DNA of 64,000 nt from an uncultured Parafilimonas sp. Lineage in GTDB: Bacteria > Bacteroidota > Bacteroidia > Chitinophagales > Chitinophagaceae. Below are positions 5,483 to 17,002 of this stretch, one piece after another. Position numbers and translations under genes: made by a program. Below the pieces are notes generated by a model that saw nothing but the letters and a program-made list of their open reading frames with translations, was not told the DNA's origin and made no database searches. The stretch's first letter is position 1, and every line of letters begins with the position of its first letter. The DNA is taken from NCBI GenBank assembly GCA_964236165.1, contig CAXSDU010000001.1, positions 92,523 to 156,522 of the forward strand, read 5' to 3'.

Positions 5483-5486
5483 TAAT

Positions 5487-5550
5487 GGTTTTTCATAGGA
5501 TATTGGATTTTAAAACGGGGCAGGATTTTCATCCAAGCCCCCTTTTTTTT
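5487..5550 (+). ncRNA. Candidate small RNA A (about 65 nt), partly antisense to the uvrC 3' end
   Basis: Own -7 element, TTTTTCATAGGATATTGGATT core, ends in intrinsic terminator. Confidence 0.4.
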
Positions 5551-7345
5551 GCAAAATATATTCCATTAAGATTTTTGCTTTTGCATTACCAATTATATTG
5601 GCAAGTTCTTCTTGAGGAATTTCTTTAATTTTTTTTACCGATTTAAATTTTTGTAACAATACAATAGCTGTTTTTTCACCAATTCCCTGAATATTTTCAA
5701 GGTCATTCTTAAAAGTTCCTTTCGAACGTTTGTTTCTATGAAATGTAATTCCAAAACGATGCACTTCATCTCTTATTCTTCTTATTAAATTTAATCCTTC
5801 GCTGTTCCAATTGAGTTTTATGGATTCTTTATCTCCCTGAAAAAAAAGTTCTTCCTCATTCTTGGCAAGACCTATAACAGTTATTTTTCCGTTTAAATCT
5901 AATTCTTCAAAACTTTCCATTGCAGCACTTAGTTGCCCTTTGCCACCATCAATTATAACAAGTTGAGGCAATGGAGTATCTTCATTTAGCAAACGTTTAT
6001 ATCTTCTATATACTACCTCTTTCATTGTAGCAAAATCATTGATGCCAGTTACGGTTTTTACATTAAAATGCCTGTAATCATTTTTACTTGGCAGCCCATT
6101 TTTAAAACATACCATTGCAGAAACAGGATAGCTTCCTTGAAAATTTGAATTGTCAAAACATTCTATATGTACAGGTATTTCTTGTAAACCAAGTTGTTCC
6201 TGCAATTCAGATAAAACGTTTAATTGCGCTTCATTGCTTTGTGAAAGATGCAGCATTTTTTGCCTTTTAAGTTCTTCTTTAAAATGTGTTACATTTTTTT
6301 TAGAAAGCTCAAGCAACTTCAATTTATCCCCTCCTTTCGAAATAGTAATTATTATATCCTTTTCAGGATAATCTATTAAAAAAGGAACTACAATTTCTTT
6401 AGCGGTGCTATTAAACATATCTCTTATTTGTGCAATAGCAAAAACCAAAGTTTCTGCTTCTGTTTCTTCAAGATTTGTTTGAAGTTCTACTGTATGTGTT
6501 TGAATAATAGTACCATTCTGTACCATTAAAAAATTTACAAATGCAATATCTTTTTCTTTTACAATAGAAAATACATCAACATTATGTAAGTGTTTACTTG
6601 CTACAATTGAGCGGGATTGATATTGCTCGAGGTGATCAATTTTTTTTCTTATTGATTCTGCTTTTTCAAAATTTAGTTTTGCAGCATAGTCATTCATAAT
6701 TATCTTATAACGGGAAATTACGGGCGATAAATTTCCTTTTAGTAGTTGACGCACCTGCATCAAACCTTCATTATAATCTTCTGCTGATTGAAATGCTTCG
6801 CAAGGTCCTTTGCAGTTACCCAAGTGATATTCCAGGCAAACTTTAAATTTTTTTCTTTCAATATTTTGTTTTGTCAAATTAAGCTTGCAAGTTCTTAAAG
6901 GAATATATTGTCTTATAAAACTTATCAGTTCTCTTACCTTACCTGCAGAAGTGAAAGGACCCAAATATTCTGAGCCATCATTAATTTTTTTTCGGGTAAG
7001 AAAAATACGCGGATAAAATTCTTTTTTTATAATAATAAAAGGATAAGATTTATCATCTTTAAGATTTATATTAAATCTTGGCTGAAATTCCTTTATTAAA
7101 GAATTTTCTAAAAGAAAAGCATCTTGCTCAGAATTTACAATAGTAAAATTTATACGATAAATACGTTGTACAAGTTCATGTGTTTTATAACCCGTAAAAG
7201 TTTTTGTAAAATAAGAACTTACTCTTTTTTTTAAATCTTTTGCTTTGCCTACATATAAAAGTGTTCCCTGTTTATCATAATATTTGTAGATGCCAGGTTC
7301 ATGCGGAATAGATATTACTTGAGATTGAAATTCAGCAGAAGTCAT
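5510..7345 (-). CDS. uvrC: Excinuclease ABC subunit C
   Basis: GIY-YIG N-terminus (PGIYKYY..LYVGKAKDLKKRVSSYF), ECFDNS, DGGKGQL, RDEVHRF, HhH; start at ATG 7345 because the track start overlaps a TATTTTTG promoter (7352-7359). Confidence 0.97.
   Translation of the reverse strand: MTSAEFQSQVISIPHEPGIYKYYDKQGTLLYVGKAKDLKKRVSSYFTKTFTGYKTHELVQRIYRINFTIVNSEQDAFLLENSLIKEFQPRFNINLKDDKSYPFIIIKKEFYPRIFLTRKKINDGSEYLGPFTSAGKVRELISFIRQYIPLRTCKLNLTKQNIERKKFKVCLEYHLGNCKGPCEAFQSAEDYNEGLMQVRQLLKGNLSPVISRYKIIMNDYAAKLNFEKAESIRKKIDHLEQYQSRSIVASKHLHNVDVFSIVKEKDIAFVNFLMVQNGTIIQTHTVELQTNLEETEAETLVFAIAQIRDMFNSTAKEIVVPFLIDYPEKDIIITISKGGDKLKLLELSKKNVTHFKEELKRQKMLHLSQSNEAQLNVLSELQEQLGLQEIPVHIECFDNSNFQGSYPVSAMVCFKNGLPSKNDYRHFNVKTVTGINDFATMKEVVYRRYKRLLNEDTPLPQLVIIDGGKGQLSAAMESFEELDLNGKITVIGLAKNEEELFFQGDKESIKLNWNSEGLNLIRRIRDEVHRFGITFHRNKRSKGTFKNDLENIQGIGEKTAIVLLQKFKSVKKIKEIPQEELANIIGNAKAKILMEYILQKKGGLDENPAPF
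5517..5550 (+). terminator. Intrinsic terminator after the gldKLMN operon / sRNA A
   Basis: GGGGC-A-GGAT-TTTC-ATCC-AA-GCCCC hairpin followed by C and T8. Confidence 0.75.
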
Positions 7346-14747: not shown

Positions 14748-16349
14748 TTATTTTTTAAGTTTTTGAATGATGGCTGCAACGACCTTTTCTCCATCCATTG
14801 CAGCGCTTACAATGCCGCCTGCATAACCAGCGCCTTCTCCGCATGGATATAAATTTTTTATTTGAGGGTGATGAAGACTGTCCGCGTTTCTTGGAATTCT
14901 TACCGGCGATGATGTGCGGCTTTCGGTTGCCACTACAATTGCTTCGTTGGTAAAATAACCTTTGCGTTTTTTTCCAAATGCTTCAAATGCTTTTTGTAAC
15001 GATGAATAAATAAAAAATGGTAAAACATTTTTTAAATCTGCACTGGAAACACCAGGCAAATAACTGCATTTTGGTAATGAGGCAGAGATTTTATTGTTAC
15101 AAAAATCCGTCATGCGTTGTGCCGGTGCAATAAAATTTCCGCCACCAGCAGTATATGCTTTTCTTTCTATTGTCTGTTGAAAATACATGTACAGTAATGG
15201 ATGCATTTTTAAATTTTCTGGATTTTGAATTTCTGAATTTTCCTTTTTAAAATAACTTAATACATCCTTTTCTTCAACCTGTACAACCACACCGCTATTG
15301 GCAAAAGGATTATTTCTTTTACTCGGACTCCATCCGTTTACAACCAGTTCATCATTACCAGTTGCTGCCGGCGCAATAATGCCACCAGGACACATGCAAA
15401 AACTAAATACACCTTTGTTTTTAATTTGCTCAACAAAACTATAAGAAGCTGGTGGCAGGTATTCGCTTCGCGGATTACAATGATATTGAATTGAGTCAAT
15501 CAAAGATTGAGGATGCTCAACACGTACACCAAGCGCAAAAGGTTTTTGTTCAATTTGAATTTTCTTCTCATGTAACAAGATAAAAATATCTCTTGCAGAA
15601 TGCCCGGTTGCAAGTATGTATGCATCAGCATTAAAGCAATTTCCATCTTTAGTTATAACAGCATTGATTTCACTTTTATCAATTTTAAAATCAGTAACTT
15701 TTTTATCGAAGAAAAATTCACCGCCGCAATCTTCAATTTGTTTTCGCATAGCAGTTATAATATCTGGTAATTTATTCGTTCCAATATGTGGATGAGATTC
15801 GTACAAAATTTTTTCATCTGCACCAAACTGAACAAATAAATTAAGAATGCGATTAAGCTTACCACGCTTATTACTACGCGTGTATAATTTGCCATCGCTA
15901 TAAGTGCCTGCACCGCCTTCACCAAAACAGTAATTGCTTTCTGTATTTATGATGCCTTGCTTATTTAAAATAGCAAGATCTCTTCTACGTGAACGCACAT
16001 CTTTACCTCTTTCTAAAATAATTGGCTTAATTCCATTTTCAATTAACATTAACGCAGCGAATAAACCTGCAGAACCTGCACCAATTATAATAACTGAATG
16101 TTTTGCTTTGCTTACATTTTTAAAAAAAACCTTTTCAATCTTTTTTTTCTCAAATGGTTCATCAGTAAATGCAGTTAGTGAAATGTTAACCCAGATTTGT
16201 TTAGCGCGTGCATCATAATTTTTTTTATGTATCAAAAAGCCGTTGACCGCTGCTTCAGGCACAGCAAGCACTTTAGCAATTTGTTCAATTATTAATGCTT
16301 CACTTGCTGTGTCAGAAGGTGATAGTTTTAAAACTATATTTTTTTGCAT
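14748..16349 (-). CDS. FAD/NAD(P)-dependent oxidoreductase (uncharacterised flavoprotein family)
   Basis: IIGAGSAGLFAA, ERGKDV, FGEGGAGTYSDGKL, SFCMCPGG, GEGAGYAGGIVSAAMDG. Confidence 0.88.
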   Translation of the reverse strand: MQKNIVLKLSPSDTASEALIIEQIAKVLAVPEAAVNGFLIHKKNYDARAKQIWVNISLTAFTDEPFEKKKIEKVFFKNVSKAKHSVIIIGAGSAGLFAALMLIENGIKPIILERGKDVRSRRRDLAILNKQGIINTESNYCFGEGGAGTYSDGKLYTRSNKRGKLNRILNLFVQFGADEKILYESHPHIGTNKLPDIITAMRKQIEDCGGEFFFDKKVTDFKIDKSEINAVITKDGNCFNADAYILATGHSARDIFILLHEKKIQIEQKPFALGVRVEHPQSLIDSIQYHCNPRSEYLPPASYSFVEQIKNKGVFSFCMCPGGIIAPAATGNDELVVNGWSPSKRNNPFANSGVVVQVEEKDVLSYFKKENSEIQNPENLKMHPLLYMYFQQTIERKAYTAGGGNFIAPAQRMTDFCNNKISASLPKCSYLPGVSSADLKNVLPFFIYSSLQKAFEAFGKKRKGYFTNEAIVVATESRTSSPVRIPRNADSLHHPQIKNLYPCGEGAGYAGGIVSAAMDGEKVVAAIIQKLKK

Positions 16350-16496
16350 TCGAAGCTCTATAAAAAAGGTATTTTAATAAGCAAAATCTTGTAACGATAG
16401 CTTAACAGTTATGCAGTAAACTTCTTGCGATATTTGCATTCTGTTATTTAATTAAATGGTTAACGAAATTAAGATTAACAGGTTTACAAAAATTTC

Positions 16497-16511
16497 TGGC
16501 ATTTGATTTGA
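16497..16511 (+). promoter_or_regulatory. Sigma54-like -24/-12 element TGGCATTTGATTTGA
   Basis: TGGCA at -24 with correct spacing to TTG; canonical -12 GC is GA here. Confidence 0.35.
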
Positions 16512-16521
16512 AATATAAGTT

Positions 16522-16602
16522 CTAAAATACGTAAGTAGTCAATTTTCTCATAAGCAGTTAGTTTTGGTTGCGGCCCCTGTTTCTACAGGGGCTTATTTTT
16601 TT
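16522..16602 (+). ncRNA. Candidate small RNA B (about 80 nt; 5' end estimated)
   Basis: + strand terminator between two - strand genes, preceded by TTTTCTCATAAGCAGTTAGTTTTGGTT and a sigma54-like promoter. Confidence 0.5.
16573..16602 (+). terminator. Intrinsic terminator oriented on + strand
   Basis: Perfect 8-bp stem GCCCCTGT-TTCT-ACAGGGGC then TTATTTTTTT; no U-tract in the - orientation. Confidence 0.8.
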
Positions 16603-16603
16603 A

Positions 16604-17002
16604 TTATACTTTTGCTTTACGTTTTTTTAAAAGCCGGATTTTTAAAAAATTACTTATATAATAACCAATTATTGCTCCCACGCTATCTGCAATCATATCA
16701 TAGTAATCAAAGTCTCTTTCAAAGGCAAAATATTTTTGTACATATTCCATTGCTACCCCATATAGGGCACAAATTATGGCGATAGAAATCATCAATTTTT
16801 TAGATGCAGTAAAATTTTTTATAAAAGGAAAACAAAACAAAAAAGTCATTCCCCCAAACAAACCTGCGTGTACCCATTTATCAAAATAGATCTCATCAAG
16901 AAAGCTAACCTGGGGAATATCAGGGCCTGGTAATACTAATAAAACAGTTGTAATTATAACCCATAAAATTGCAGGAATAAATAAGGTAATTTTAAGCTTC
17001 AC
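16604..17002 (-). CDS. VanZ family membrane protein
   Basis: FDKWVHAGLF, YGVAMEYVQ, RDFDYYDMIADSVG; GTG start, TACATTTG promoter at 17013-17020. Confidence 0.88.
   Translation of the reverse strand: MKLKITLFIPAILWVIITTVLLVLPGPDIPQVSFLDEIYFDKWVHAGLFGGMTFLFCFPFIKNFTASKKLMISIAIICALYGVAMEYVQKYFAFERDFDYYDMIADSVGAIIGYYISNFLKIRLLKKRKAKV

Follow-up and report, generated by a model that had tools for sequence, protein, structure and literature searches.

An apparently undescribed regulatory RNA gene of about 80 bases in Chitinophagaceae

Why should a gap between two genes of the − strand carry a promoter-like element and an intrinsic terminator that both face the other way? The gap in question (positions 16350–16603, 254 nt) lies within the window, by which we mean the whole 64,000-nt stretch of DNA from an uncultured Parafilimonas sp. 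that was analysed here. A sequence-only reading of this stretch had proposed an orphan + strand transcription unit at 16497–16602, and each feature that it named there was found in its place (Table 1): the terminator scan reports the hairpin on the + strand only, and the genes on both sides are encoded on the − strand. Judging from the evidence set out below, 16497–16602 (+) is a real and apparently undescribed regulatory RNA gene of Chitinophagaceae, some 80 bases long. The vanZ gene at 16604–17002 is a syntenic neighbour of this main copy and lies outside the RNA itself; beyond it, as seen from the RNA, come genes for an RskA-type anti-sigma factor and an ECF sigma factor, and gcvH.

Table 1 Features of the intergenic locus and its two neighbours, in window coordinates
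Feature	Position	Strand	Basis and remarks
FAD-dependent protein, 533 aa	14748–16349	−	ORF list and domain scan
Distal TTAACA motif	16402–16407	+	Genus alignment; ~95 nt upstream of the −24 element
Proximal TTAACA motif	16475–16480	+	16 nt before TGGCA, at ~−47 relative to the predicted start; positional consensus
Sigma-54-type promoter, TGGCAT (−24) N5 TTGA (−12)	16497–16511	+	TGGCAT at 16497–16502, TTGA at 16508–16511
Predicted transcript, ~80 nt	16523–16602	+	Start from −24/−12 spacing (~±3 nt); end at the U run
Degenerate 5′ seed repeat AAGTAGTCAA, cf. AAGCAGTTAG	16533–16542	+	Alignments; within an A/U-rich stretch
Invariant single-stranded core (seed) TTTTCTCATAAGCAGTTAGTTTTGGTT, 27 nt	16543–16569	+	BLAST identity, invariant alignment columns
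Anti-start-codon CAT inside the core	16549–16551	+	Sequence
Terminator stem-loop GGCCCCTGT-TTCT-ACAGGGGCT	16572–16593	+	Terminator scan; loop TTCT conserved
U run TATTTTTTT	16594–16602	+	Completes the intrinsic terminator
VanZ-like protein, 132 aa	16604–17002	−	Pfam VanZ; convergent; stop codon abuts the sRNA terminator

On the + strand the 3′ end of the predicted transcript has what defines an intrinsic terminator, a G+C-rich hairpin followed by a run of U on the transcribed strand; in the − orientation, what comes after the hairpin is GCAACCAAAAC, which has no U run. The predicted fold of the transcript (−22.1 kcal/mol, z = −3.3) owes most of its stability to this terminator, whose stem comprises 9 bp according to the terminator scan and 8 pairs in the family model. 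In an alignment of 63 distinct copies, all 8 pairs show compensatory changes: 93.8% of the cells in the stem are paired, versus 71.5% in shuffled alignments, and the covariation score is 0.68, versus 0.25 in the shuffles (0 of 500 as high in either case), collapsing once the partners are slid against each other. The core is without variation across the same alignment. Ahead of it, sister species have a small 5′ hairpin, (A)CTACTT...AAGTAG(T), the 3′ arm of which is the seed repeat; in the window's species this hairpin is degenerate, and among members of the genus the 5′ arm (A)CTACTT is retained at a variable distance. The predicted transcript contains no ATG, and no conserved ORF was found on either strand. 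Two readings as a small ORF were rejected, since a TTG-initiated ORF (16564–16785) crosses the terminator into unconserved sequence and the MRKLTT peptides of the − strand have variable ends.

We found the same element throughout one bacterial family. With the spacer as BLAST query against 60 relatives, the last ~60 nt, i.e. core plus terminator, were 95–100% identical within the genus and in more than 10 other genera, often in several copies. A scan for the exact pattern in one genome per GTDB species gave at least 120 loci, and among the matches listed, which include Ferruginibacter, Sediminibacterium, Chitinophaga, Niabella, Niastella, Terrimonas, Flavihumibacter and Puia, all informative assignments were to Chitinophagaceae. 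In this pattern-derived set the invariance of the core is partly by construction; it was seen just as well with BLAST and with the model, neither of which requires it. A covariance-model search, which the sequence-only reading had proposed, was carried out with a model (R1) built after aligning the 63 distinct copies. It scores the window copy at 86.9 bits and turned up further copies across the Chitinophagaceae: 113 of the 151 genomes from the family have the element (112 of 150 genera), with 1–12 copies each, some of them in tandem. The same model found no convincing copy in ~139 other Chitinophagales genomes, and in ~245 other Bacteroidia genomes weak single matches only (≤33 bits). An Rfam 15 cmscan of the window gave nothing at gathering score; a match to PrrF (28 bits) was discarded as driven by the terminator and far below the 90-bit cut-off of that model. 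In the literature searched, we found no paper containing the core sequence and no description of Chitinophagaceae sRNAs.

Within 100 nt upstream, GGCA-N6-TTG occurs on the sense strand of 64 of the 106 stand-alone copies and on the opposite strand of none (0/106), at a position 28–57 nt before the core and with the family consensus tttTGGCAy-N5-TTTGCGTTATA. This −24/−12 arrangement is that of the classical sigma-54 promoter. The sigma-54-like element that had been noticed in the window is a conserved one, and canonical TGGCAY-N5-TTGC is its form in most other genera; among the 64 sigma-54-type copies, 45 (orthologous copies, other genera) carry canonical TGGCAy-N5-TTGCG. The window's own version, TGGCAT-N5-TTGA, reads GG-N10-GA, where the canonical −12 dinucleotide is GC and the consensus TGGCAC-N5-TTGCW, and throughout the window's genus the −12 element is TTGA, non-canonical with respect to TTGC. 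The variant seems usual in this genome, because several other intergenic TGGCA-N6-TTGA sites precede genes by 20–66 nt. Altogether 24 intergenic TGGCA-N6-TTG[CA] sites were noted in the genome, many of them 20–66 nt upstream of genes (e.g. C11:49632, C16:34764, C90:9964, C93:13466 and C125:4327), which would make them a candidate sigma-54 regulon with TTGA common at −12. What such promoters require, rpoN and at least one enhancer-binding protein, is encoded in the genome: rpoN by a PF04552 match at G000:C6:15263-15736 (the gene is present in 150 of 151 family genomes), and candidate enhancer-binding proteins by three ORFs with GAFTGA and Walker A motifs. Since the GG would be placed at −25/−24, transcription is predicted to start near 16523, giving an RNA of ~80 nt. 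Other stand-alone copies have a TAnnTTTG box upstream. Boxes of this kind belong to the housekeeping promoter type of Bacteroidota.

A further motif accompanies both promoter types. Of 96 stand-alone copies, 76 have TTAACA some 47 nt ahead of the predicted start, regardless of promoter type; the motif was counted 98 times for the sense strand, 17 times for the antisense strand and 3–5 times in downstream controls. It is sometimes present as 2–3 direct repeats ~11–12 nt apart (related loci L049–L168), and none was seen at the remaining sigma-54 candidates in this genome; possibly it is a regulator binding site, for a putative activator or architectural protein. Also upstream, at 16420–16440 (+), is a block conserved in the genus, AAACTTCTTACGATATTTGCATTC, with a near-match to the TAnnTTTG −7 box; being on the same strand and 60–95 nt upstream of the sigma-54 element, it could represent a putative second promoter that gives a longer isoform. 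At one locus elsewhere in the family (L192, G107:C54:9600-10400), three tandem promoter-core-terminator units follow each other ~200 nt apart, and ~95 nt upstream of each −24 element stands a palindrome, TTGCCA-N9-TGGCAA, that looks like an enhancer-binding-protein site.

We then asked what the invariant core might recognize. Its reverse complement, AACCAAAACTAACTGCTTATGAGAAAATT, includes an AUG with Arg-Lys codons after it and matches the leader and start motif of susC genes. Duplex energies were computed for start regions (−35 to +30), with gene starts crudely called as the first in-frame ATG, and, given that a U-rich seed facing A-rich leaders inflates such energies, composition-preserving shuffles served as control for the inflation. 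This genome has ~25 SusC/RagA genes, and the 25 SusC starts average −11.56 kcal/mol; dinucleotide-shuffled seeds gave −9.59 ± 0.69, 0.7% of them being as good. Energies of −13 kcal/mol or lower were reached by 36% of SusC starts versus 12% of other genes (p = 0.0012), and exported-like M[KR][KR] genes were at background (−9.59). When an ungapped score locked to the start codon was used in this genome, complementarity in the upstream 18 nt was not enriched (p = 0.41) and the SusC excess was confined to the coding side, i.e. to the MRK/MKK codons. The effect in this genome is thus real but modest, since the start-locked score is enriched on the coding side only.

The clear SusC signal came solely from the gapped duplex test and a second genome. 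The latter (G029, the one other genus on which the strong result rests) contributed 46 SusC starts, with a callable start codon for 37, and 280 kb of control sequence. Its 37 SusC starts average −15.5 kcal/mol versus −9.9 for 233 control genes (p = 1.6e-12), 78% versus 15% of them reach −13 kcal/mol or lower, and none of 200 shuffled seeds was as good (−10.75 ± 0.77); the excess also holds against exported-like M[KR][KR] genes (p = 5.6e-6). Typical SusC sites are TAACTAAAACTAAATGCAAATGAGAAAATTG and AGACTAAAACAAAAACAGCTATGAGAAAAG, in which both ends of the seed are used and CAU is placed over AUG, and a 20/23 match to the seed complement spans the AUG of a SusC gene. It had been suggested from the sequence that the A/U-rich core could pair with the translation starts of mRNAs devoid of a Shine-Dalgarno (SD) sequence; these computations support such pairing, specifically for SusC-type starts.

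Searches that were blind to gene class were less informative about individual targets. A duplex screen of all gene starts of this genome gave no excess over shuffled seeds, and its best single target, the start of an MFS transporter (−23.9 kcal/mol), was rejected because the complementarity is not conserved in 9 orthologues. When 60 family genomes were searched for the seed complement as a pattern, mostly the sRNA genes themselves were returned, together with a few matches at 2–3 mismatches that coincide with the start codon of a gene for a SusC protein, a lipoprotein or a hydrolase that is CocE/NonD-like judging by its N-terminal sequence. At C129:7251-9042 of this genome, a small gene comes directly after one of the three GAFTGA activator genes; its start, TATGAGAAAATT, is perfectly complementary over 12 nt to the 5′ portion of the seed, which may be coincidence.

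How might these parts work together? We consider it fairly probable that 16523–16602 (+) encodes a trans-acting, base-pairing sRNA that has a sigma-54-type promoter and represses SusC-type mRNAs. Transcription would begin from the promoter at 16497–16511 once one of the genome's few enhancer-binding activators switches it on, and would end at the RNA's own intrinsic terminator. The largely unstructured core, UUUUCUCAUAAGCAGUUAGUUUUGGUU, possibly assisted by a protein partner, would then pair with mRNAs for SusC-type TonB-dependent outer-membrane transporters over the initiation region, from about −20 to +9 relative to the AUG; the leaders of these mRNAs carry the complementary motif ACCAAAAC..CUGCUUAUGAGAAAA. 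With the start codon covered, ribosome loading would be blocked in these SD-less mRNAs and less transporter would be made. Sister copies in other Chitinophagaceae would be fed by housekeeping-type promoters or released from hsp20 3′UTRs, and, because these copies differ in promoter or 3′UTR origin, several signals including heat stress may converge on one regulon.

The length of the invariant stretch invites a different reading, which we regard as unlikely: that core and 5′ repeat bind an RNA-binding protein, for example of the RRM type, in the way that CsrB and RsmZ titrate CsrA, and that pairing with mRNA is incidental. Invariance of 27 nt over more than 100 genera exceeds what most seeds need, a seed-like repeat, AAGYAGTCAA, precedes the core, and the genome has genes for three small RRM proteins; moreover, the RRM protein RbpB binds the sRNAs FopS and GibS of Bacteroides thetaiotaomicron (PMC11697453). 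That precedent itself, however, concerns a protein that antagonises or otherwise modulates a base-pairing RNA, FopS, and is not sequestered by it (PMC11697453). In addition, each RNA offers one or two copies of the motif, unlike multi-site sponges, and the complementarity to SusC starts is strong, class-specific and extends across the start codon.

The contexts in which the copies are found bear on whether the hairpin simply serves the neighbouring gene. In 56 of the 120 loci listed, the gene immediately downstream is a convergent vanZ, after which come genes for an RskA-type anti-sigma and an ECF sigma factor and gcvH, and in the window the vanZ stop codon abuts the terminator. Because no U run follows the hairpin on the − strand, transcription from vanZ may continue antisense across the sRNA gene. 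One could therefore propose a cis-antisense regulator, or a mere terminator module for the vanZ/anti-sigma/ECF-sigma string: vanZ transcripts would cross the one-directional hairpin, would be fully complementary to the RNA, and would have the stability of their mRNA 3′ end controlled by it, with any trans targets being secondary. We judge this improbable. The vanZ neighbourhood is absent from more than half of the copies, so that the hairpin is not merely a vanZ terminator; the same invariant core recurs in hsp20 3′UTRs, in tandem arrays and elsewhere; a vanZ 3′UTR needs no invariant core of 27 nt; and the complementarity to SusC starts would be left unexplained.

These recurrences of core and terminator in hsp20 3′UTRs, in tandem arrays and beside unrelated genes uphold the proposal of an independent, predicted + strand sRNA gene, and sigma-54-type, TAnnTTTG-type and 3′UTR copies together make up the dispersed family with different promoters that the sequence-only reading had envisaged. 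The great majority of copies have a T run 3′ of the hairpin on the strand of the core and promoter-like elements upstream on that same strand. In 14 copies with one core change (GCAGTTGG), the element directly follows the stop codon of hsp20 in sense orientation and has no promoter motif of its own, i.e. these are 3′UTR-type copies, whereas in tandem arrays every repeat is a complete promoter-core-terminator unit. The T run is weak or interrupted in a few copies. One of these is a second, partial copy in the window's own genome, at C4:67611-67675 (+) (L002 1489–1553), which consists of AAGCAGTTAGTTTTGGTT and a different hairpin with a weak T run, is without TTTTCTCAT, and scores 34.9 bits with the family model; it sits 70 nt past the stop codon of a LutB-like gene, and similar partial copies are found in two relatives from the genus.

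That the element is only a terminator or a repeated piece of DNA without an RNA of its own, fortuitously resembling a sigma-54 promoter and conserved through a DNA function or mobility, would fit its multicopy nature and the non-canonical −12 element of this genus, and yet is very improbable given a stem kept by covariation next to an invariant core, a strand-specific promoter motif (64 versus 0), a promoter-to-terminator orientation that is fixed in unrelated contexts, and aligned flanks in which we noticed neither terminal repeats, inverted or direct, nor any other sign of mobility. A guide RNA of the dCas12f type was also considered. The dCas12f-sigmaE guide RNAs of Bacteroidota have a long stem-loop scaffold and a ~14-nt 3′ guide and are encoded beside rpoE-dcas12f (PMC13472631). 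The present RNA has a terminator at its 3′ end and no guide there. The ECF sigma factor encoded nearby measures 180 aa and is accompanied by an RskA-type anti-sigma, and there is no adjacent Cas12f-like gene; this candidate was set aside, as neither architecture nor locus fits.

The sequence-only reading had further taken the RNA for a likely paralogue of a second candidate in the window, sRNA A (~5486–5552, +), on account of a shared core. sRNA A is itself a conserved, multicopy RNA of Chitinophagaceae with an invariant core and a TTG...TAnnTTTG promoter, and reaches up to 10 copies per genome. The paralogy did not hold: the proposed shared pattern, for which chance alone predicts 1.2 occurrences per window, has two, the family model gives sRNA A 15.1 bits, which is not significant genome-wide, the alignment score of the two cores is reached by 38% of dinucleotide shuffles, and a search for the core allowing up to 5 mismatches found no match in sRNA A. 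The two also differ in target preference, the sRNA A seed pairing with the SusC starts of G029 at background level only. We therefore treat sRNA A as a separate family. The 5′ end of FopS-10 and GibS, GTGTTTTTCATAGTATTAG (primers AWO-881/241), is almost the same as the seed of sRNA A, GGTTTTTCATAGGATATTGG, and sRNA A is perhaps the actual FopS-like RNA in this lineage. In other Bacteroidia families, three loci (L185, L187 and L190) give weak matches to the family model of the form TTTTTTTCATAG/AAG...GTTTGG followed by a terminator; such weak matches, TTTTTTTCATAAGTAGTTTGTTTTGG plus terminator, look intermediate between sRNA A and the present RNA, a hint that anti-start-codon RNAs may form a broader group.

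To our knowledge, post-transcriptional control in Bacteroidota is known almost solely from gut Bacteroides. The present RNA would be the first sRNA family defined for Chitinophagaceae, which are abundant in soil, freshwater and activated sludge as degraders of polymers. Its proposed regulon is clear and can be tested, consisting of the SusC-type transporters at the head of loci for polysaccharide and peptide uptake. The finding suggests that throttling of SusC synthesis at the RNA level, just discovered for FopS, is not confined to the gut. Tying this throttling to sigma-54 and to a heat-shock operon would provide a handle on the role of sigma-54 in Bacteroidota, and as a compact natural repressor module the RNA would be usable for engineering nutrient uptake.

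Among known systems, the comparison with FopS had already been raised from the sequence, and it stands in part. FopS sRNAs of B. thetaiotaomicron repress the translation of SusC by pairing at the initiation region (PMC11697453), and the FopS family, as well as the R1 seed of GibS, has been described from B. thetaiotaomicron and Bacteroidaceae (Ruttiger et al. 2025, PMC11697453; Ryan et al. 2020, PMC7366714). Architecture and target class are the same. Like FopS, the Chitinophagaceae RNA is a multicopy paralogous family of Bacteroidota (here 1–12 copies per genome) with a long single-stranded seed directly before a Rho-independent terminator, has intergenic and 3′UTR-derived members and more than one promoter type, and has a seed that fits over the start codon of SusC-like mRNAs, as shown for FopS and as statistically indicated here; its host, like that of FopS, encodes RRM-type proteins (three small RRM-motif ORFs in this genome). 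A match in sequence is what was not found. The FopS family is reported to be deposited in Rfam (PMC11697453), though perhaps not in release 15; at E ≤ 10 over 16300–16700, neither a FopS nor a GibS model was among the Rfam 15 cmscan matches. The first 19 nt of FopS-10, GUGUUUUUCAUAGUAUUAG (primer AWO-881), have only UCAUA.G..UUAG in common with the window core. Also unlike FopS, the seed of the sigma-54-type copies follows a 5′ extension of 20–25 nt instead of standing at the very 5′ end, there are sigma-54-type promoters and hsp20 3′UTR copies, and the RNA is restricted to Chitinophagaceae.

A common origin of FopS/GibS, sRNA A, the present RNA and the look-alikes is possible, although convergence on similar leaders of susC and other exported genes would give the same picture. 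More boldly, and with considerable doubt on our part, the present RNA, sRNA A, the look-alikes TTTTTTTCATARG...GTTTGG and FopS/GibS might be branches of one ancient, phylum-wide superfamily; equally speculative is that these would be ‘anti-leader’ RNAs with UUUUUCAUARG as their basic seed, which would co-evolve with the mRNA starts of exported proteins and SusC. Were this so, throttling of outer-membrane uptake at translation would be a general trait of Bacteroidota that was rewired to sigma-54 and heat shock in Chitinophagaceae.

In the layout of its promoters the RNA resembles another system, Qrr1–5 of Vibrionaceae (RF00378), which is likewise a multicopy family transcribed from sigma-54 promoters (here a promoter-like motif), with a stretch of ~30 nt that is absolutely conserved in all copies and a 3′ terminator. 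There is no similarity to Qrr in sequence or in Rfam, RF00378 being absent among the matches at E ≤ 10, nor is there a context of LuxO, Hfq or quorum sensing; phylum and target class are different, and some Chitinophagaceae copies are without the sigma-54 motif. The presumed logic, an alternative-sigma or heat-shock input that would shut down outer-membrane proteins through 5′ pairing, recalls the SigmaE-dependent RybB, MicA and MicL of Enterobacteria. Those RNAs are unrelated in sequence, depend on Hfq and on a different sigma factor, and target porins and Lpp, where the present RNA would target TonB-dependent SusC transporters. The RNA is thus a new family of a known kind, the multicopy base-pairing sRNA, closest to FopS in mechanism and to Qrr in promoter logic.
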